Below are positions 12,145 to 24,921 of a DNA stretch of 32,000 bases, in pieces (positions within the stretch are counted from its first letter, which is position 1; the number at the start of each line of letters is the position of its first letter). Under the pieces are notes generated by a model. It made no database searches. It saw nothing but the letters and a program-made list of their open reading frames with translations, and was not told where the DNA came from. Both the position numbers and the translations under genes were made by a program. The DNA comes from Candidatus Methanoperedens sp. (GTDB lineage: Archaea; Halobacteriota; Methanosarcinia; Methanosarcinales; Methanoperedenaceae). The DNA is taken from the NCBI GenBank assembly GCA_041494705.1, contig JBGQBI010000003.1:296449-328448 (forward strand), read 5' to 3'.

Positions 12145-12804
12145 TTATAAGCTGCATCTTCGAACAACCCCAAAGCCACGGGAAACAGATTTGCCAATAC
12201 CAAGATATTCAGGTATCATGAAGTTTATCTGAAATTCGCCCTTAAAACCAATGAGAGGAATGCCTTTTGAATAAACTTTTATGGGTGATACTTTTGTTCT
12301 TACTTTAATTTGGTTAAGAACGACGTATCCGAGAGACTTGGAAATTGAGAGAAGGTTTCCTGCAAGGATTTGATGTAAAAGTTTCACTTTGTTCTTTGGA
12401 TCGAATTTAATATAGGAATCATAATTTATCTCATTCAAAGCTATCCAGGGAACAATAAACATATACTGCATAAAGCTATCAGAACAACCAAATTCCTGGC
12501 TTTTTTCAATTATCTGACGTTCTTCAATTTTGTAAGTCATCTTACCAAGGATAATATCTTCGATATCCCAGGAAATTTCTTTTAAAATCTCAGCCCCTTC
12601 ATCAATTCCAAGTATTACCGGCGTACCTTCAATTATCTTGTATTGCACTTTCGGATATTGGTAAGAGTTCTTACCATTTTCTGCATGCTGGTGCAGAATA
12701 GGATAGTCTTTGAACCTGTTTCCGATGAAGCCCCGCAGTTTCTCAGGGCTTTCAGTTACAGGGTCTTTGGTTTTCAGTATTAGGGTTAGGGTCTGGATGT
12801 CCAT
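12145..12804 (-). CDS. cas6: Cas6 endoribonuclease, paralogue A (attached to the type III-like module)
   Basis: It has a RAMP G-rich loop (LGIGKSVSRGFGVV) and the N-terminal LRGF...LHQH...YPKVQYK pattern. It is paralogous to the ORF at 23154-23846. Confidence 0.85.
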   Translation of the reverse strand: MDIQTLTLILKTKDPVTESPEKLRGFIGNRFKDYPILHQHAENGKNSYQYPKVQYKIIEGTPVILGIDEGAEILKEISWDIEDIILGKMTYKIEERQIIEKSQEFGCSDSFMQYMFIVPWIALNEINYDSYIKFDPKNKVKLLHQILAGNLLSISKSLGYVVLNQIKVRTKVSPIKVYSKGIPLIGFKGEFQINFMIPEYLGIGKSVSRGFGVVRRCSL

Positions 12805-12868: not shown

Positions 12869-13666
12869 TCATATTTGTTTTATTTTTATATCTACCTTTC
12901 CAAATCCCTTTGACTTGTAACCACCAATGGTTTTTATGCTTGCAAAGCGGTCAATAATAAACTCCTTGATGATCGGATCTATTGACCGTGGATGTCCTGC
13001 AAGCCATGCATCTCCTCCAGTATAATCTTTAAGATTTCTCGCTTTTCCAAGTTCTCTATCTCTAACAGTGTCTTTAATTATAACTGTCAAGGTACCCATG
13101 AATTTAGCACCGTCAGGCACCAACTGGTATGGTCTATTTGTCCCCTGCTTTACGGTCTGGATTGCCCTATCAATATTTGCCGAATATAGTTCATTAACCG
13201 TTGTTTTGGCATACAAAAACGGCACTTTTACAAATCCCTCAAGTCCGTTTGCGCCAAGGAAATAGCAAACCGGACAAATTTCGTGCAATGCTTTGCATTT
13301 TCTATCGCAGGGATAGTGACAGCCATCTCCTTTGATATCCCCTCCGGTCGGCTGGAATAAGTTATAGAATCTATATAACCCATTCACCACAAGCTGATTT
13401 TCATCAGGAGAAAGCTTTGTTGAAGGTATGCAAGGCTGAAGATTTTTATCCGTCCATTTTTTTTCAGCCCTATTAAAATAGGTATCAATCAGGTATCTCT
13501 CAATCTCACAGCGGTAAGCGCCTTTGAGGGTAGAACCCGGAACAACCGCCTTATTGCCCACAAGGGCTATCGGGTTATCTATTCCCGATAAGGGACTTGC
13601 TATCCCCCCGATTCGAATAGGTTCTAAAGTTGTCAATTCAATTTCAAATTCTTTCTGTTCAATCAT
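12869..13666 (-). CDS. cas7: Cas7-group RAMP, Csm3/Cmr4-like (the only Cas7 of the type III-like module)
   Basis: Motifs present: GIDNPIAL (Asp30, at the position of the Csm3/Cmr4 catalytic Asp), VPGSTLKGAYR, CPVCYFLG, and the C-terminal G-rich loop GGYKSKGFGKV. A GGAGG Shine-Dalgarno lies 10-14 nt upstream, inside the end of the preceding gene. Confidence 0.8.
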   Translation of the reverse strand: MIEQKEFEIELTTLEPIRIGGIASPLSGIDNPIALVGNKAVVPGSTLKGAYRCEIERYLIDTYFNRAEKKWTDKNLQPCIPSTKLSPDENQLVVNGLYRFYNLFQPTGGDIKGDGCHYPCDRKCKALHEICPVCYFLGANGLEGFVKVPFLYAKTTVNELYSANIDRAIQTVKQGTNRPYQLVPDGAKFMGTLTVIIKDTVRDRELGKARNLKDYTGGDAWLAGHPRSIDPIIKEFIIDRFASIKTIGGYKSKGFGKVDIKIKQI

Positions 13667-13670
13667 TTTC

Positions 13671-14690
13671 TCAAACCTCCGTTATACTTATCAAACTTTT
13701 TATTATAAACCGTGCAGTTTTTCTGTCTATAGATGGATATTTTTCAATGATTCCAAGTACATGAAGAAGCGTTTCTGCCTGTTGCCTCGTATCCCTTCTG
13801 TTCTTTCTCTCCAACAAAAATGTCCTGGTCATGGTTAACCCCTCCCTTTCGAGAATATCCCCAACTGTATTCTGAAACTTATTTGATAAATACCCAATTT
13901 TTACATTTTTCTTTATTTCTTCAATGACCTTTGCCGCAATATCTTCCGTTTCTGTATTCATTGTTTTGTCACTCTTTGTTTTTAGTAAAAATCCTGGCGC
14001 TTCAACCATGCTGCCTTCAAACAATGAAAGCACATACTTACCTTCTGTTTCGGATGTCGGTTCAAAAAGATATCCGAAATTTGCGTTTTTCACCTTTTTA
14101 ATTCCAAAAACATCATGCAAAAATCTGGTTGGCTTACCTTCTTCAAGTACATTTTTAATATCCTCTTTTCCAGCTTCAAAATCCGCATCATTAAGCTTAA
14201 AAAGTGGCAATCTGGTATTCAATTCACCCTCTCTGGAATCGGCACATGGATCAGTTCCCTTAAAATTCAATTTGCACTCCCCAAAACCTTTGGATTTCAA
14301 TCCACCCATCCAGAAACTTATCTCTCCTTTCTGGGACCATATCTCTTTCACATCTTCATTTTCTTTAAGATACACCTCGCCTTCCACATTGTAAAGATAT
14401 TCGGTATATATAGGAATAATACTTGTTTCAATTGACCTGTTTCGTGGAGAATAAGTGAGTGTCTTAATGTGATTCTCCCTGAACTCAGTCTCATCCTTAA
14501 AAAGAAAATGTCCACATGCATGGATTTGCTTTGACTTACCGGCATTTTTACTGTTTCCAAATTTCGCCTGAAGCGCACCTGTAATCTGGCTATAAGGAAT
14601 TGTTGTAATAACAGGGCGATACTGTCCCTTTTTAAACCTTTCTCCCAGGATGAGCAGATCAGAACTAAAACCAAACTTAAGGATGTTCAT
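13671..14690 (-). CDS. cas5: Cas5-group RAMP (Csm4/Cmr3-like N-terminal about 145 aa) with an unassigned C-terminal extension of about 190 aa
   Basis: The N-terminus has IPYSQITGALQAKFG and a G-rich loop, GGLKSKGFGECKL, at aa 129-141. The gene sits immediately after cas10, as cmr3 and csm4 do. The rest of the protein has no motif I can name; the last 90 aa or so are helical-looking and basic. Confidence 0.6.
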   Translation of the reverse strand: MNILKFGFSSDLLILGERFKKGQYRPVITTIPYSQITGALQAKFGNSKNAGKSKQIHACGHFLFKDETEFRENHIKTLTYSPRNRSIETSIIPIYTEYLYNVEGEVYLKENEDVKEIWSQKGEISFWMGGLKSKGFGECKLNFKGTDPCADSREGELNTRLPLFKLNDADFEAGKEDIKNVLEEGKPTRFLHDVFGIKKVKNANFGYLFEPTSETEGKYVLSLFEGSMVEAPGFLLKTKSDKTMNTETEDIAAKVIEEIKKNVKIGYLSNKFQNTVGDILEREGLTMTRTFLLERKNRRDTRQQAETLLHVLGIIEKYPSIDRKTARFIIKSLISITEV

Positions 14691-16708
14691 TCTTCATCCC
14701 CCATGATTTTTGCATATGTCAAAATTGTTTTAAAATCAATCTTTTTATCCTGCGCTCTGATTGGCTCAAAAGCATTGTAAACTCTATAATCTCCTCTATC
14801 ATAAACAAGAACCTTTGCCAATTTCTCTGAGGTCTCCGATATCTTGGCAAGCTTATGAAGCTGCTTGGAGGCAGGTATTTTGAAATCTTTTATTAAGACT
14901 TTGAGCTGGTTTAAAGTGAGGTGCATCCCACCCCTTCCAATCAAAATAACATTCACATCATTTTTTGGGTTCTCAAGGATTTTCCAGTGCCTAAAAAAGG
15001 CAAATTTTACATTGGATACTGAAATTGAGAGGGTAACTGGAGATTTTTGTTCCTTTAGCTCGGGGAAGCACTCCATAAATATGTTACTATATATTTCCAG
15101 GATATCTTTTATCTGGCTTATTTTTTCGAGTTTGATACAAAGAAAATCATTAAGGATAGGCTGGAAGTTCTCGGTTTTAAAATATTCTTCTAAATTTTTG
15201 TTGAAATTTTTGAGGAATAAATCATAATCTTTCTGGAATTCAGCAAGAACGGAAAAGCGTAGTTCAATTTTTTCAGAGATTGCACCTTTAAGGGTATTTT
15301 GGATATATTTGTCAAGTAGTGTTTGTAATGTTTCTGCCAGAGATTCAATATCCAGATTAATTTTGATCCAAGCAATTTTGGAATTAGGTTCTTCTTTATA
15401 CCATTGTTCAATTTTAGGAGCAGGTGGCTCTTTTCTAAAATCTCTAATAGAATAGCAACTTTCACAGAGGTGTTCCGTTATTCCGCTTTCTTCATCGTTC
15501 CAATCTTTTTCTGCTGGATGCATTTGACAGATTTCACAAAGCTTATTGATTGTGATTGATAGATTACCATAATAATTGCTTATAGGAAAACGGCTCTCAA
15601 ACTCCAAACGGTCTTTATCTAACTCTTTTAATTTGTTTGTTTTTAAGTTGATATCCGGTATTTTTTCAAGGTTTACCCGTTGTTTTTTGATGCTATTTTC
15701 AAAACGTTGAGATTCTTGTTCTTTAATTATTTTCGGTGTAAGATTTGCATATTCCAGGATCGTATTTGCTCCTTCGATATTAACAATGAAACCTCTTTCT
15801 ATAAAGGGTTTAACAAGTTGTGTAATTGATTCATCTGGAGGGAGTAACGCCAAGAATTGAGTAGAAGTATTAAGGATAATATTATCATTTTGTGAAAATT
15901 TAGATATTTCATTATTTAAAATTTGAAAAATATGTAAATCCTTAACTCTAACAGGATAATGTGGAAATTTAATCTGAACCCTTATGATATTTAAATTCCA
16001 CTTTTTTCTGGCGTCATTTGGACTGTTCGCAGTTTTACCTCCAAAGGAGAGAGTACCTTTAGAGACTTCTTTGGTATTTGCTTCGAAGAATCTAAACAGC
16101 TTTCCAACAAGGTTTGAATGAGTAAAAAGACTGGTAATATTCTTAGGTGGTTCAAAATCTTCTGGTCTCTCCAGCATATTTTTATTAAAATTCTGGAAAT
16201 ATTGCTCTTTATCTTGAACAACATTTGTAAAAGCAACCAATGATTTAAAATCATTCTCAGAAGAAAATAGTTTAATTTCTTCGTTGTAAGGCTTCCACAA
16301 CTTTAAGAGAGTCCTGTTTTCAAATTTAATATCAATTTTTCCAATCTCTTTATTTGTCAAAGTTCTTGAAATAGATGATGCCATATAATCAGCTAAACAT
16401 TGCAAAAAAACTGGATACTCTTTCTTCTTTTCTGCATATTCTGAGATCAAATCCTTTGTTGATTTATCTGGAGGATCATGGTGATATCTAATATTTTTGT
16501 ATGTAAGGGTTTCAGTAAAATTTACTCCAAATAACCTCAGATAGTGTAATTCTTCACCTGTTTCCTTATTTATGCATAAAAAATTGTGGTTCCAATCTAT
16601 TTTTTCAATAGGAATACCAAGTTTTTGCGAAATAAATTGCCTAATCCAATAACTATCCACAAGCTTCCCAATATCATGAAGTTCTGGAATAATTTTATCC
16701 TCAGACAT
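14687..16708 (-). CDS. cas10: Cas10-like large subunit: N-terminal HD nuclease motifs intact, Zn ribbon present, cyclase GGDD motif absent
   Basis: HD-domain motifs are LHDIGK (H11 D12), RYHHD (H76 H77) and LADYMASSISR (D107). The Zn ribbon is CEIC...CESC (C391, C394, C415, C418). Palm2-like strands are IAWIKINLDIESL and TLSISVSNVKF. The expected GGDD position reads PILNDFLCI (aa 517-525), and no GGD string occurs anywhere in the protein. Confidence 0.7.
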   Translation of the reverse strand: MSEDKIIPELHDIGKLVDSYWIRQFISQKLGIPIEKIDWNHNFLCINKETGEELHYLRLFGVNFTETLTYKNIRYHHDPPDKSTKDLISEYAEKKKEYPVFLQCLADYMASSISRTLTNKEIGKIDIKFENRTLLKLWKPYNEEIKLFSSENDFKSLVAFTNVVQDKEQYFQNFNKNMLERPEDFEPPKNITSLFTHSNLVGKLFRFFEANTKEVSKGTLSFGGKTANSPNDARKKWNLNIIRVQIKFPHYPVRVKDLHIFQILNNEISKFSQNDNIILNTSTQFLALLPPDESITQLVKPFIERGFIVNIEGANTILEYANLTPKIIKEQESQRFENSIKKQRVNLEKIPDINLKTNKLKELDKDRLEFESRFPISNYYGNLSITINKLCEICQMHPAEKDWNDEESGITEHLCESCYSIRDFRKEPPAPKIEQWYKEEPNSKIAWIKINLDIESLAETLQTLLDKYIQNTLKGAISEKIELRFSVLAEFQKDYDLFLKNFNKNLEEYFKTENFQPILNDFLCIKLEKISQIKDILEIYSNIFMECFPELKEQKSPVTLSISVSNVKFAFFRHWKILENPKNDVNVILIGRGGMHLTLNQLKVLIKDFKIPASKQLHKLAKISETSEKLAKVLVYDRGDYRVYNAFEPIRAQDKKIDFKTILTYAKIMGDEE

Positions 16709-16872: not shown

Positions 16873-19800
16873 GTTTCAATCCTTGTTTTAGTGGATGTGC
16901 CTCTTGAATTAAAAATCTATTCATGGATGGTGAAGAAGGGTTAATGTTTCAATCCTTGTTTTAGTGGATGTGCCTCTTGAATGCTGAATGGAAACGGCTG
17001 GGGTATCGCAAAAGCGGGAGTAGAGTTTCAATCCTTGTTTTAGTGGATGTGCCTCTTGAATGCAACAGCTTATAGCAGAATATGACAATAAACATAAGTT
17101 TCAATCCTTGTTTTAGTGGATGTGCCTCTTGAATATAACTGTATGTCCTCGATGTCATTCGTGGGCGAGGAGTTTCAATCCTTGTTTTAGTGGATGTGCC
17201 TCTTGAATATTATCAAGAGTTCCTGAAAACGCAAAATATCTGGAAGTTTCAATCCTTGTTTTAGTGGATGTGCCTCTTGAATGTCAGGGAACGGGAAGAA
17301 CGAAAACGGGAAGTTCTGGTTTCAATCCTTGTTTTAGTGGATGTGCCTCTTGAATGAGAAAGAGATTGATGATGATATTTTCGCTATTGGTTTCAATCCT
17401 TGTTTTAGTGGATGTGCCTCTTGAATTCTTGATTGCCCGGATGGATCTATTAATTGAACAGAAGTTTCAATCCTTGTTTTAGTGGATGTGCCTCTTGAAT
17501 TGCAAAAATCTGGTTTGAATTATTCGGCATTACTACGGTTTCAATCCTTGTTTTAGTGGATGTGCCTCTTGAATGAAGAGTTTTGTACAATGCAGCAAGG
17601 GCGTAATGAAGTTTCAATCCTTGTTTTAGTGGATGTGCCTCTTGAATCTTTCAGTTCATCTGTTTTTTCAACTGCTTTGATGTTAGTTTCAATCCTTGTT
17701 TTAGTGGATGTGCCTCTTGAATCCCTCTTCACGGAAGGAAAGGCAGGAGAACTACAGTTTCAATCCTTGTTTTAGTGGATGTGCCTCTTGAATAGTTGAA
17801 AAACCCGTGCCCGCTTGCGAGAATGTCAGTTTCAATCCTTGTTTTAGTGGATGTGCCTCTTGAATATGACAGCTCCAACAATTCCGGATATCTTTGTATG
17901 TTTCAATCCTTGTTTTAGTGGATGTGCCTCTTGAATAATTATCGAAAAAACCTTATACGCCGACGAAACAGGTTTCAATCCTTGTTTTAGTGGATGTGCC
18001 TCTTGAATTATGCTCTGGTGATATCATGGTCTCGAGAGCATATGGTTTCAATCCTTGTTTTAGTGGATGTGCCTCTTGAATGTCTTTCTGTATTCCATCA
18101 AGTCCACGATCCTGAGTTTCAATCCTTGTTTTAGTGGATGTGCCTCTTGAATCTGATCCGTTTTTTTTATTCCCTGGAAGAACACCAGGGTTTCAATCCT
18201 TGTTTTAGTGGATGTGCCTCTTGAATTTTCTATGGTGTGTGCGGTCAGGCCCCTGACCTGACAAGTTTCAATCCTTGTTTTAGTGGATGTGCCTCTTGAA
18301 TCGGGTATGCGGTTTCATAATCACGCCTGAACCTTAGTTTCAATCCTTGTTTTAGTGGATGTGCCTCTTGAATGCCTCGAATCCGCGCAAGGCGTCGGAT
18401 ATCGTGGGTTTCAATCCTTGTTTTAGTGGATGTGCCTCTTGAATTCTTTTTCAGCAACAGGAGGAACACATGCCACAGAGTTTCAATCCTTGTTTTAGTG
18501 GATGTGCCTCTTGAATCCGCCCATATAGCGCAAAACAACCCGCCCATCTGGGTTTCAATCCTTGTTTTAGTGGATGTGCCTCTTGAATTCAAGCGTCTGC
18601 CGCTCACGGACTATGAGAAGGCAGTTTCAATCCTTGTTTTAGTGGATGTGCCTCTTGAATTATATTGCTTTTTTGGTGCGACCACAAGAGATATAGTTTC
18701 AATCCTTGTTTTAGTGGATGTGCCTCTTGAATAATATTTTAGAAAAGCATGTCGGCAGGCATATCAAGTTTCAATCCTTGTTTTAGTGGATGTGCCTCTT
18801 GAATACAATCAAGAAGTCATGTACATTCTCAGTCTACTAGGTTTCAATCCTTGTTTTAGTGGATGTGCCTCTTGAATGAAAAGCAGGAGGAGTGGAAGCC
18901 TATATATATATAAGTTTCAATCCTTGTTTTAGTGGATGTGCCTCTTGAATCCGAGCGCAGCGGAAATTATCTCATTTGAAATAATAGTTTCAATCCTTGT
19001 TTTAGTGGATGTGCCTCTTGAATAATCAGGTGCAGGAGCGCCGTAATCGAATCCTTCATGTTTCAATCCTTGTTTTAGTGGATGTGCCTCTTGAATTACA
19101 CCTTTTTCCCCTTTTGAATTGGTACATTTTTGTTTCAATCCTTGTTTTAGTGGATGTGCCTCTTGAATAGGCTCGATGATAAGAACTCTCCATGCGAAAG
19201 CTGGTTTCAATCCTAGTTTTCGTGGATGTGCCTCTTGAATATCCAAAGTCCGAACATAACTTTCCAAGCTTACAGTTTAAATCCTTGTTTTAGTGGATGT
19301 GCCTCTTGAATATAGCGGGTATATTTATATAGTGTCTAACCAATGTTGTTTCAATCCTTGTTTTAGTGGATGTGCCTCTTGAATGTCCGAAGCGGATCAA
19401 GCGCGTGGACTGTGGCTTCAGTTTCAATCCTTGTTTTAGTGGATGTGCCTCTTGAATTTTCTCAATGGAAGTGCGTACAAGAACAATGTGACGTTTCAAT
19501 CCTTGTTTTAGTGGATGTGCCTCTTGAATCCTTGAGGGTGAGTAGCGAGGCTACCGCATATTATAGTTTCAATCCTTGTTTTAGTGGATGTGCCTCTTGA
19601 ATTCAGGTACATCCCGCCGAAGCTGCACCTGTTCCGCGGTTTCAATCCTTGTTTTAGTGGATGTGCCTCTTGAATCTCCGGCTGCCGGGCAAAGCGGCCA
19701 TTGTTCAAAGTTTCAATCCTTGTTTTAGTGGATGTGCCTCTTGAATCTGGTTCATGAAGGGATACCCGATTTCAAGGAGCTTAGTTTCAATCCTTGTTTT

Positions 19801-20977
19801 AGTGGATGTGCCTCTTGAATGTACATTTATGAATTGGAAGTAATCGTTAAACTTGTTTCAATCCTTGTTTTAGTGGATGTGCCTCTTGAATACGGCGGAG
19901 ATAGCGTCTTCGGAGTACAGTACGAGGTTTCAATCCTTGTTTTAGTGGATGTGCCTCTTGAATCCCATATGATTTTTTCAGACAGTTTCAGCGCAGGTGT
20001 TTCAATCCTTGTTTTAGTGGATGTGCCTCTTGAATTCCTCAATCGAGGAAGTCAGCCGGGCAGAAATGAGTTTCAATCCTTGTTTTAGTGGATGTGCCTC
20101 TTGAATGAAGCGGATCAAGCGCGTGGACTGCGGTTTCGTGAAGTTTCAATCCTTGTTTTAGTGGATGTGCCTCTTGAATGCCCGGCAGCGCGGGAGCCGC
20201 AAGCGCGAACAACAGTTTCAATCCTTGTTTTAGTGGATGTGCCTCTTGAATTTTGTCGTGAAGAAATGGCGGAAGCAATGTGGAGGTTTCAATCCTTGTT
20301 TTAGTGGATGTGCCTCTTGAATTACGCTCATAAATCCTCAGGAGGGATTGATTCAAAGTTTCAATCCTTGTTTTAGTGGATGTGCCTCTTGAATGAAGAG
20401 GCGACCGCGCGGTTGAAGGAGTTCATGAAGTTTCAATCCTTGTTTTAGTGGATGTGCCTCTTGAATACAAGGAATATCAATGTTGATTCCACAGAGAAAA
20501 AAAGTTTCAATCCTTGTTTTAGTGGATGTGCCTCTTGAATCAGGACGGGGTTTGTAGTGTGCAGGCCCTCGAATACCAGGGTTTCAATCCTTGTTTTAGT
20601 GGATGTGCCTCTTGAATGCGCTGAACGCATACAAGGGAAACGGCTTTCTGGAGTTTCAATCCTTGTTTTAGTGGATGTGCCTCTTGAATTTTTGGTACCA
20701 TTCCTTATCCTAGGAACGAGAAAGTTTCAATCCTTGTTTTAGTGGATGTGCCTCTTGAATCATCTGCGATATGGTTGTTTGGTAATCAGACAAATGGTTT
20801 CAATCCTTGTTTTAGTGGATGTGCCTCTTGAATTGTGATCTCGCTTCCGGAACTCGCCTCATCACCGAGTTTCAATCCTTGTTTTAGTGGATGTGCCTCT
20901 TGAATTCCAGGTTCCTATAGGATCGGTGTAGAGAATATTAGTTTCAATCCTTGTTTTAGTGGATGTGCCTCTTGAAT
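16873..20977 (-). CRISPR. CRISPR array with 57 repeats of 37 bp and 56 spacers of 34-42 bp
   Basis: The + strand repeat is GTTTCAATCCTTGTTTTAGTGGATGTGCCTCTTGAAT. Its reverse complement ends in ATTGAAAC, a typical 8-nt 5' tag, which gives - strand transcription with the leader at the high-coordinate end next to cas4. All 57 repeats were located by hand, and the spacer lengths sum correctly to the span. The variant repeats are at 19204-19240 (2 substitutions) and 19275-19311 (1 substitution). Confidence 0.97.
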
Positions 20978-23153: not shown

Positions 23154-23846
23154 TTATGAACGCAGATGCCTGATTGCATAAGGCTCCTCTTTTGCCAGAC
23201 CTTTAACAGCCCCGAAGCCTCTTGAAACTGATTTCCCGATGCCAAGATAATCAGGTATGAGGAAGTTGGTACAGAATCCTCCGATGAAGGTCATCACGTT
23301 TACGTCTTTTAACCTGCTTTTCCTGATATTTACATCAACATCGCATTTTATCTTTTCGGGTACCTGATAATCTAAAGATTTTGACACGGAAAGAAGGTTC
23401 CCAATGAGCGTTTTTCTAAGGAATTCATTTCTATCCTCATGACTCTTAAGACCATAGTACTTCATGTAATTCTCCTGGTTGAGCGCAAGCCATGGCGTGG
23501 CGAACTCGTAGGAATGTATCTTTTCCGAAATCCCAAACTCCTGGTTCCTGACAGAGATGCCCTTCTCTACGATCTCATAAACCTCCTCGCCAAGTTTTAT
23601 TTCATCGTATTTATCATAAACCAGTTTTAAAACGTCGGCGCCGTCATTGATTCCGATGACCATGGGCGCGCCGTCTATCATCTTGTACTGCACGAGGGGA
23701 TAGCGATAGATGAGCCTGTCGGCGCTGTGCTGGTGGAGGAGGGAGTATTCGTTGAATTGGGTGGCGAAGAAGCCGCGAAGCTCTGCTGAGGTGCCCTGGA
23801 TGGGGCGGGTGGAAGCGAGGGTGAGGGTGAAGGTTTTGAGGTTCAT
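23154..23846 (-). CDS. cas6: Cas6 endoribonuclease, paralogue B (type I-B side)
   Basis: It has the G-rich loop LGIGKSVSRGFGAV and the LRGFF...LHQH...YPLVQYK pattern. The ATG at 23846 (MNLKTFTLTLAS) is preferred over the GTG at 23858 because the upstream relic copy starts at the homologous ATG. Confidence 0.85.
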   Translation of the reverse strand: MNLKTFTLTLASTRPIQGTSAELRGFFATQFNEYSLLHQHSADRLIYRYPLVQYKMIDGAPMVIGINDGADVLKLVYDKYDEIKLGEEVYEIVEKGISVRNQEFGISEKIHSYEFATPWLALNQENYMKYYGLKSHEDRNEFLRKTLIGNLLSVSKSLDYQVPEKIKCDVDVNIRKSRLKDVNVMTFIGGFCTNFLIPDYLGIGKSVSRGFGAVKGLAKEEPYAIRHLRS

Positions 23847-23935
23847 ATTTTTATGCACTATGTTTTATCACTTTGGTCTGCTACTGCATTGCGGCGCTGG
23901 GGTTGCGACCCCAGACCCCGGTGAGGCGCCGCCGA
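23847..23935. repeat. Copy A of an imperfect direct repeat of about 90 bp flanking the MNT/HEPN cassette
   Basis: Collinear blocks ATGCACTAT, TTATCA, CTTTGGT, TGCAT and GGCGCCGCCG are shared with 24963-25049. Copy A additionally carries the hairpin CTGGGGT-TGCG-ACCCCAG (23897-23914). Confidence 0.6.
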
Positions 23936-24043: not shown

Positions 24044-24475
24044 TCAATCTTTAATTTCTATGTACTTGTCAATGGTCTCTATGAATTCATAAAAATCCTT
24101 CAATTCTATATTTAGATAAGAATATGCCCTTGAATCATCTATATGTCCATATTGATGCACAAGCAAATTTCGAAATCCAACAAGTTCTTCAAGCCTGGTG
24201 GAAAGTGACCCTGTTATCACTCCATTTTCAGCAAGTTTCCTGATACTATCTTTACTATCGGTCGGTATTCCAAATCCTTTTTCAGATATGATCAAATTAC
24301 AGATGTCAAGTAAATTTTCACTTGCCAGTTGGAAAGCGCGTTCACACGCTCTTTTCCTCAGACCGCTGTTCAGGTATTCCTCTTTTTCTTCTGGAAGGTA
24401 TTCCTCAAGTTCTCTCAGGTATTTCTCCAGTTCATCCATCTTTTCTAATATTCTATCTTTATCCAAGAATATCAT
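24044..24475 (-). CDS. HEPN (DUF86) toxin of a HEPN/MNT toxin-antitoxin pair
   Basis: The R-x4-H motif is present in FRNLLVHQYGHID. The protein is 143 aa and overlaps the upstream MNT gene by 4 nt. Confidence 0.8.
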   Translation of the reverse strand: MIFLDKDRILEKMDELEKYLRELEEYLPEEKEEYLNSGLRKRACERAFQLASENLLDICNLIISEKGFGIPTDSKDSIRKLAENGVITGSLSTRLEELVGFRNLLVHQYGHIDDSRAYSYLNIELKDFYEFIETIDKYIEIKD

Positions 24476-24921
24476 CCCAATCTGGCTCTAACACGTTCCA
24501 TAACATGCTTATGATAGTCCTTAGTGAGCCTTTTATATCGTTCATATTCTATATCATTTATCTTTGAAAGTGTTAATATGTAATACATGTCCTGCGTGTA
24601 AAGCACCCTGCCTTCGAGAAATACCCTTTTGCGTATATAAACAGGCAGTTCATCAATGAATGAAATATCGATATTCTCAGGAACTGAATTGTTAATGGAT
24701 ATCCTCTCTTTCAGGGGAATTTCAATATCATGTTTTGGTATGATACATATATCTATGTCGCTCTTTTCTTTTTCAGTTCCTCTGGCTTTTGAACCAAAAA
24801 GGATGATGGAATGAACAAGCCTGGACCTCTTGAGTTTTGAGATTGCCTCGTTTATGTCTTCGTTTGATATATTTTGGTCGTTCCTTTTTGTCACAGGGAC
24901 AATTTGATTTTTCATTATCAT
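24472..24921 (-). CDS. Minimal nucleotidyltransferase (MNT) antitoxin
   Basis: The G-S-x9-11-D-x-D motif is present (ILFGSKARGTEKEKSDIDICII). The protein is 149 aa. Confidence 0.8.
   Translation of the reverse strand: MIMKNQIVPVTKRNDQNISNEDINEAISKLKRSRLVHSIILFGSKARGTEKEKSDIDICIIPKHDIEIPLKERISINNSVPENIDISFIDELPVYIRKRVFLEGRVLYTQDMYYILTLSKINDIEYERYKRLTKDYHKHVMERVRARLG

Follow-up and report, generated by a model that had tools for sequence, protein, structure and literature searches.

In type III effector complexes of CRISPR (clusters of regularly interspaced short palindromic repeats) systems, Cas5 and Cas10 hold the 5′ handle of the CRISPR RNA (crRNA), the backbone consists of copies of Cas7, and Cas11 runs along the target strand. 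The canonical reference for subtype III-F, Tlet_0097-0100 of Thermotoga lettingae, has the gene order cas10, cas5, cas11, cas7 (PMC8036902), and III-F systems keep the HD domain while having no cyclase motifs and no effectors (PMC11229360). Three further systems bear on the locus described here: the solved III-Dv complex, in which the Cas11 domain of a Cas7-Cas5-Cas11 fusion and the Cas10 C-terminus lie along the Cas7 filament and all subunits are single-copy (PMC11026444); the type IV-C1 effector of Pyrococcus abyssi and Thermococcus onnurineus, a proposed III-F descendant with the composition Cas10(1)-Cas5(1)-Cas7(7)-Cas11(6) (PMC13676074); and types I-B, I-C and I-D, in which Cas11 is translated internally, in frame, from cas8 or cas10d (bioRxiv 10.1101/2020.04.18.045682; for Haloferax Cas11b, bioRxiv 10.1101/2024.10.02.616218). 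We analysed a 32,000-nucleotide (nt) stretch of a Candidatus Methanoperedens sp. genome (contig JBGQBI010000003.1, positions 296,449 to 328,448; hereafter the window), and report that the second gene of its III-F module is, very probably, a translational fusion of a III-F Cas5 (amino acids [aa] 1-238) with a III-F Cas11 (aa 251-339) through a flexible linker of ~12 residues.

Judged by its profile matches, the module is a subtype III-F effector whose cas11 is fused rather than missing. We made this assignment because the PADLOC profiles are clear for all four effector families (Cas10f, 5e-96; Cas5_IIIf, 7e-41; Cas11f, 2.2e-16; Cas7_IIIf, 4e-59) and because a Cas10 with an HD domain and without GGDD fits published III-F. 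On inspection, Cas10f carries the N-terminal HD motifs LHDIGK (H11-D12), RYHHD and LADYMAS and a CxxC...CxxC knuckle, with no GGDD or GGDE anywhere in its 673-aa sequence, and Pfam scans covering 20 open reading frames (ORFs) from the window detected neither a CARF nor a SAVED protein. The 265-aa Cas7 scored 4.4e-59 with Cas7_IIIf versus 1e-14 or weaker with the Csm3 models of PADLOC, and the operon's four ORFs gave only one RAMP/Cas7 match in Pfam, that is, a single Cas7 gene. The window thus shares with canonical III-F the same four families (HD Cas10f without GGDD, Csm4-like Cas5_IIIf, Cas11f and a single Cas7_IIIf), the gene order seen in 90 related loci, and the lack of a CARF or other ancillary effector nearby. 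It differs in that its module has its own cas6b and lies directly beside a 57-repeat array, and in that cas5 and cas11 are one ORF: where III-F is expected to have a separate cas11 between cas5 and cas7, Cas11 is correctly placed but in frame with cas5. Membership in type IV-C was rejected, as the Cas7 scored only 3.5e-5 with the type IV model, and so was type VII, since the large subunit has no Pfam match, hence no β-CASP/metallo-β-lactamase domain, and matches Cas10f.

The fusion ORF comprises 339 codons on the minus strand, running from 14690 down to 13674 with its stop at 13673-13671. A reading of the letters alone (the original prediction) had described this ORF, two motifs within it (IPYSQITGALQA at aa 31-42 and GGLKSKGFGECKL at aa 129-141) and a helical, Lys/Arg-rich C-terminus, all of which we found as described. 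It had also let the RAMP end at aa ~145 and left the remaining ~190 aa without a RAMP assignment; this boundary is wrong, because Cas5-class chains reach residue 239 of the structural model while Cas7 chains stop at ~150. Conservation, the Cas5_IIIf profile, stand-alone homologues and structure alignment all place the Cas5 fold at aa 1-238, so that aa 146-238 belong to Cas5 and the Cas11 part is only ~90-96 aa long. PADLOC divided the protein into two non-overlapping matches, Cas5_IIIf at aa 3-238 (7e-41) and Cas11f at aa 253-336 (2.2e-16), and the 119 homologues retrieved from a database fell into two classes by length: 23 of 311-352 aa that span the whole query, and the remainder, of 190-246 aa, that cover only aa 1-~238 (about the first 70% of the query) and stop just after a conserved ...GYLFEPTS...YVLSLFEGS...P.FLL block at query aa 206-236. 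In the family alignment, invariant or near-invariant residues continue through aa 235 (L157, R160, P162, F195, G206, Y207, F224, E225, P232 and L235).

The AlphaFold model of the full protein (predicted local distance difference test, pLDDT, 88) agrees with these limits, having a beta-rich domain to aa ~236, a stretch with pLDDT <50 at aa 241-247 and a confident helical domain at aa 244-338. In VIA-align, Cas5-class chains (Csm4, Cmr3, Cas5d, Cas5e and type VII Cas5) aligned over model residues 1-239 with Z 10-11.5, led over residues 4-240 by Csm4 (8bmw_M; Z 11.5, root-mean-square deviation [rmsd] 4.3, 196 aligned) and Cmr3 (6s6b_H; Z 11.3, rmsd 3.7, 202 aligned), while Cas7 chains aligned only to residues 1-150. 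Pfam and NCBIfam hardly recognised the proteins of the module, and for the fusion ORF they gave only a sub-threshold Cas5b match and a spurious Caulimovirus match. The Cas5 part is therefore a domain of ordinary size, 238 aa with a clade-specific helical insertion included, and ~96 aa (244-339) are extra. This two-helix insertion (~30 aa) occurs only in Methanoperedens/Methanosarcinales rows of the alignment, the Cas5 of bacterial and other archaeal III-F systems being without it.

Several lines of evidence identify the extra domain, from its sequence, as a true homologue of the III-F small subunit Cas11. The Cas11f match covers profile positions 5-84 of 87; from Met244 onwards the sequence shares 65% identity over 94 aa with the stand-alone Cas11 of locus L044, the nearest split relative; and the same segment can be aligned along its full length with 17 Cas11f proteins encoded by separate genes. 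The Pfam Csm2 and Cmr5 models do not match this domain, which therefore belongs to the III-F family specifically. Among fused relatives, the Cas11 part is conserved like the Cas5 part (92/79/74% vs. 91/83/74% identity). The original prediction had noted that the module holds no separate cas11, and profile searches found no other Cas11f, Csm2 or Cmr5 match in the whole 2.06-Mb, 99.5%-complete genome either. Its suggestion that the C-terminal region stands in for Cas11 proved right insofar as the region supplies the missing subunit, but 'surrogate' is the wrong word for a true homologue.

Structure prediction and comparison pointed to a Cas11/Csm2/Cmr5 fold. The domain modelled by itself has six helices (AlphaFold, pLDDT 92), and in a VIA-align comparison with 48,161 chains, Cas11-family chains headed the list with 8 of the top 12 places: Cmr5 ranked first (2oeb_A; Z 6.9, rmsd 3.2, 93 aligned) and recurred as 4gkf_B (Z 6.7), 9arw_F (6.5), 6s6b_A (6.4), 9lq5_G (5.7) and 2zop_A (5.6), joined by the Cas11 insert of gRAMP (8d9g_B residues 263-367, Z 5.4) and Csm2 (8bmw_A, Z 5.2), and lower in the list the III-Dv fusion followed with its Cas11 domain (8s9t_A residues 633-773, Z 4.7). 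Foldseek with the Cas11 domain alone gave no match at E ≤ 0.001; its E-values exceeded 1, though Csm2 and Cmr5 were among the best TM-scores. For a helical bundle such Z values would be indecisive by themselves, but taken with the sequence evidence they are decisive; the fold evidence thus lies in the over-representation of Cas11-family chains at the head of the list, combined with the sequence matches.

To place the fusion among its relatives, we took a census of 121 related loci (41 from genomes and 80 from metagenomes), 122 with the window, in which a hidden Markov model (HMM) of the C-terminal region was compared with the six-frame ORFs of each locus. A separate small cas11 ORF was found in 90 of the 122 (mostly 95-105 aa, E down to 1e-38), lying between cas5 and cas7 with its start overlapping the cas5 stop or within a few bases of it, and this split arrangement is the ancestral and commonest one. 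Cas11 lay in the same ORF as Cas5 in 21 loci, which represent only about three to five independent lineages; the other 11, in which it went undetected, are truncated contigs or loci with an expanded protein in the slot. A maximum-likelihood tree built from 106 Cas5 domains implies at least five changes between the fused and the split state, and well-supported branches force at least four of them. The three fused clades are well separated on this tree: one is Methanoperedens-related, with the split forms L044 and L046 nested within it; another consists of L056, L060 and L061; and a third, deep clade has 10 rows, mostly Thermoproteota. Contexts of the closest split proteins (P0016, P0018 and P0022) were taken from the metagenome contigs L044 and L046.

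Two features of the related loci were seen alongside. Many split loci have cas11 in the cas5 frame, with a stop and one or two codons between (frame difference 0: L005, L052, L053, L055, L057-L059, L066, L067, L069, L070, L072, L073 and L079), and there one stop-codon substitution, or read-through of the stop, would therefore yield a fused protein. In Methanoperedenaceae GB37 (L006:5701-6318), the slot between cas5 and cas7 is filled by a ~205-aa protein whose N- and C-terminal ends resemble Cas11 helices 1 and 5-6 and enclose a long insertion that is charged and coiled-coil-like; similar ORFs of ~190-209 aa occur in L028, L035, L036, L039 and L041. The Cas11 HMM misses or barely detects such proteins, which may be an expanded Cas11 variant.

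The DNA at the junction shows what separates the two states. The split junction of L044 reads ...AAA GAA GAG GGT GAA TAA TGTGAGC ATG AAC GCA CAA ACA GAT GAC..., the fused junction of L002 reads ...AAA ATA AAG GGT GAA AAA ---- AAG ATG GAA GAT CAA ACA GAG GAT..., and that of the window reads ...AAA ACA AAG AGT GAC AAA ---- ACA ATG AAT ACA GAA ACG GAA GAT... (core of the alignment: ...GAGGGTGAATAATGTGAGCATGAAC... in split L044 vs. ...AAGGGTGAAAAA----AAGATGGAA... in fused L002). In this alignment the fusion corresponds to loss of the TAA stop plus a 4-nt length difference, which places cas11 in frame with cas5. The window's Met244 lines up with Met1 of the separately encoded L044 Cas11 and is, by this alignment, the ancestral cas11 start codon. 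Upstream of it, AAGAGTGA occupies the place of the Shine-Dalgarno sequences AAGGGTGA in L002 and L003 and GAGGGTGA in split L044.

Of the described systems, III-Dv offers the closest parallel to the fusion itself, with Cas5 followed by Cas11 in one polypeptide through a flexible linker, and there a single tethered Cas11 domain can work (PMC11026444). The III-Dv chain was the top Foldseek match of the full fusion model, and its residues 245-776 aligned with model residues 1-339 (Z ~10, rmsd ~15 Å), the two domains being differently oriented. Unlike the window fusion, III-Dv adds Cas7 in front and fused Cas7 repeats, whereas Cas7 of the window is free; its linkers are ~20 aa as against ~12 aa, and searches of PDB sequences detected no similarity between the two. 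Type IV-C1 is the nearest experimentally studied architecture: its Cas10 is of the HD type and is joined by one Cas5, by Cas7 of a single species and by Cas11. It differs in that cas11 is a gene of its own and each complex carries six Cas11 copies (PMC13676074), and the window Cas7 is far better matched by the III-F model (4e-59 vs. 3.5e-5). With the internally translated Cas11 of type I, the window shares a small subunit in frame at the 3′ end of another subunit's gene and a start codon at the domain boundary, preceded in most fused III-F relatives by a ribosome-binding site; unlike there, the host gene is cas5 rather than that of the large subunit, the system is type III, the window site is weak, and a free product is only predicted.

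We weighed the fusion against two readings that would dispense with it. On the first, the C-terminal region would not be Cas11 but the ordinary second half of a Csm4/Cmr3-type protein, or else an unrelated helical add-on, which the original prediction had itself named as the outcomes that would tell against it; in favour of this, aa 146-238, half of the ~190 aa in question, do belong to the Cas5 fold, and helical bundles give modest structural Z values. For aa 251-339, though, this reading is refuted by the Cas11f profile, by the 90 census loci with stand-alone matching genes in the cas11 slot (E down to 1e-38) and by the identity to L044, and since stand-alone Cas5 homologues end at aa ~238 and Cas11-family chains dominate the top structural matches, we give it next to no credence. 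An assembly or sequencing artefact that joined two genes, separate as in most III-F loci, would need little, as only one codon and a small indel set fused junctions apart from split ones, a difference of the kind that errors could imitate. The same fused frame, however, is present in the near-complete window genome, in L001, L002/L042, L003, L043 and L045, and in ~20 further proteins from NCBI, JGI, ENA and Logan assemblies (49-92% identity); it is intact across many independent assemblies at 67-92% identity, and the linkers of the fused relatives differ by substitutions, not by frame errors. The artefact is thereby effectively refuted and extremely improbable. Notwithstanding, four points weigh against the fusion as we read it: Z values of 5-7 (<8) for the Cas11 domain lie in the range where helical bundles match by arrangement alone; searches of PDB sequences with the protein, Cas10 and the Cas5 and Cas11 profiles found no relatives, and thus no structure of any III-F component; IV-C1 has six Cas11 per Cas5, and a strict 1:1 fusion leaves the other minor-filament positions unexplained; and tethering would require the 12-residue linker to span to the canonical Cas11 position.

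A further possibility, which adds to the fusion rather than excluding it, is that the gene has two products, initiation at Met244 also making a free 96-aa Cas11 that would supply the extra small-subunit copies needed by a multi-Cas7 backbone. An in-frame ATG, GTG or TTG is kept at the position where stand-alone Cas11 starts, or no more than a few codons away, in 21 of 21 fused genes from all three clades, including 10 of 10 rows of the deep clade, where the adjoining linker residues are variable; and in 13 of the 21 no other same-size window of the ORF has a start codon with an equally good Shine-Dalgarno duplex. Strong sites are seen, for example, as AAGAGGAGGGA-N6-GTG in L056, L060 and L061 and as GGGGGATGGGGTATG in the Thermoproteota clade, and the median duplex energy is -8.5 kcal/mol in fused genes vs. 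-10.1 at 76 stand-alone cas11 starts, all energies assuming one GAUCACCUCCU 16S tail for every host. The IV-C1 stoichiometry (one Cas5, six Cas11; PMC13676074) and the type I precedents from inside cas8 and cas10d (bioRxiv 10.1101/2020.04.18.045682; 10.1101/2024.10.02.616218) favour the idea as well. On the other hand, the site is a decayed one in the window and in L001, its nearest relative (AAGAGTGA; -4.5 kcal/mol, vs. -8.5 in L002 and L003), and is equalled by roughly one in three windows of that size in the rest of the ORF, whereas clear sites precede the starts of cas5 (GGGGGAT) and cas7 (GGAGGT) in this operon; a start codon and ribosome-binding site in the linker are, moreover, inherited from a recent frame fusion, so that their presence alone is no proof of use, and III-Dv functions with one fused Cas11 domain (PMC11026444). 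We therefore regard the dual-product gene as a tentative proposal and consider free Cas11 from internal initiation in the window genome itself plausible but less likely than not. It is, in the same way, possible but on balance unlikely that the recurrent fusions persist as two-in-one genes, with a tethered Cas11 nucleating the minor filament and free Cas11 coming from a conserved internal start.

Taking the Cas5-Cas11 fusion as the preferred reading, we propose by analogy that the Cas5 domain and the HD-type Cas10f would jointly bind the 8-nt crRNA 5′ handle at the complex's foot, and that the tethered Cas11 domain would take the first minor-filament position along the target strand, opposite the Cas7f backbone; we place it there because the Cas11 domain of the Cas7-Cas5-Cas11 fusion does so in the solved III-Dv complex. 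The fusion would set the supply of Cas5 and Cas11 at 1:1, and the ratio of Cas7 to Cas11 becomes a problem because Cas7 here is a free, oligomerising subunit; any additional Cas11 copies would need initiation at the retained Met244 ATG.

Table 1. Coordinates of the cas5-cas11 fusion, its parts and the surrounding III-F module in the window.
Feature	Position	Strand	Evidence or remarks
cas10f	14687..16708	minus	673 aa; PADLOC Cas10a|Cas10f 5e-96 over aa 4-670
cas5-cas11 fusion gene	13671..14690	minus	339 aa + stop; second gene of operon
Cas5 (Csm4/Cmr3-class RAMP) domain, aa 1-238	13977..14690	minus	Stand-alone Cas5 alignment; VIA-align
Helical insertion in Cas5, aa ~163-195	14106..14204	minus	Alignment; helices 175-184 and 189-195 in model
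Inter-domain linker, aa 239-250 (KTKSDKTMNTET)	13941..13976	minus	Predicted disordered; sequence varies among fused relatives
AAGAGTGA, weakened remnant of ancestral cas11 Shine-Dalgarno	13969..13976	minus	Junction DNA alignment; 16S duplex energy
In-frame ATG (Met244), homologous to stand-alone cas11 start	13959..13961	minus	Junction alignment; candidate internal initiation site
Cas11 (III-F small subunit) domain, aa 251-339, six-helix bundle	13674..13940	minus	PADLOC; alignment; AlphaFold; VIA-align
cas7f	12869..13666	minus	265 aa; PADLOC Cas7_IIIf 4.4e-59; Pfam RAMPs
cas6b paralogue of III-F module	12145..12804	minus	219 aa; Pfam Cas6b_N + Cas6b_C
CRISPR array, 57 repeats of 37 nt	16873..20977	minus	Between III-F module and I-B adaptation/effector genes

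The operon is tightly packed on the minus strand in the order cas10f, cas5-cas11 fusion, cas7f, cas6b (Table 1): the ATG of the fusion gene overlaps the cas10f stop as ATGA, and the GGAGGT Shine-Dalgarno sequence of cas7f lies within the last codons of the cas5-cas11 gene. In Cas7f, a Cys/His-rich cluster, CHYPCDRKCKALHEICPVC, which may hold an extra zinc site, surrounds the usual CPVC knuckle at aa ~116-134, and the Asp of a GIDNP motif, a candidate residue for RNase activity, corresponds in position to the RNA-cleaving Asp of Csm3. Beyond the array lies a complete type I-B system with cas4, cas2, cas1, a second cas6b, cas3, cas5, cas7 and cas8b. The single 57-repeat array is thus flanked by the III-F module and by a complete I-B system with cas1, cas2 and cas4, and each effector module has one Cas6b paralogue, at 12145-12804 (III-F) and 23154-23858 (I-B). 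Arrays have been reported missing from most III-F loci (PMC12669027). Within the I-B operon, between cas3 and cas6b, is a toxin-antitoxin pair of a HepT-like HEPN RNase and an MNT nucleotidyltransferase (24044-24921, minus strand). TldD/PmbA is encoded near the III-F module, and an archaetidylinositol phosphate synthase gene and a trp operon are among the neighbours; together with the nearest homologues, such neighbouring genes assign the window to a Candidatus Methanoperedens-like archaeon.

The component families, and the precedent of a Cas5-Cas11 fusion in III-Dv, were known already; new are that the fusion recurs in III-F, by which exact mutational route it arose, and that the internal start is retained. 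No account of a III-F protein joining Cas5 to Cas11 came up in the literature searched, which included the 2025 classification update but did not cover the 2020 classification paper. III-F is among the least studied CRISPR subtypes, no structure or biochemistry having been found for it, and the type IV-C study proposed it as the ancestor of type IV (PMC13676074). The III-F module of the window is complete with just four genes, is linked to an array and brings its own Cas6; with the small subunit joined to Cas5, it makes an attractive minimal system for reconstitution, and it raises the question of stoichiometry, that is, whether a complex holds one tethered Cas11 or tethered and free copies from an internal start. 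Were internal initiation true, no earlier case would be known of Cas11 translated internally in type III, nor of one from within cas5; the type I rule would be extended, and the gene would provide a natural intermediate between multi-subunit and fused effectors. The census indicates that the fusion of Cas5 and Cas11 is a recurrent and stable evolutionary solution rather than a one-off, and it parallels the steps that lead from III-D to the single-protein III-E effectors.

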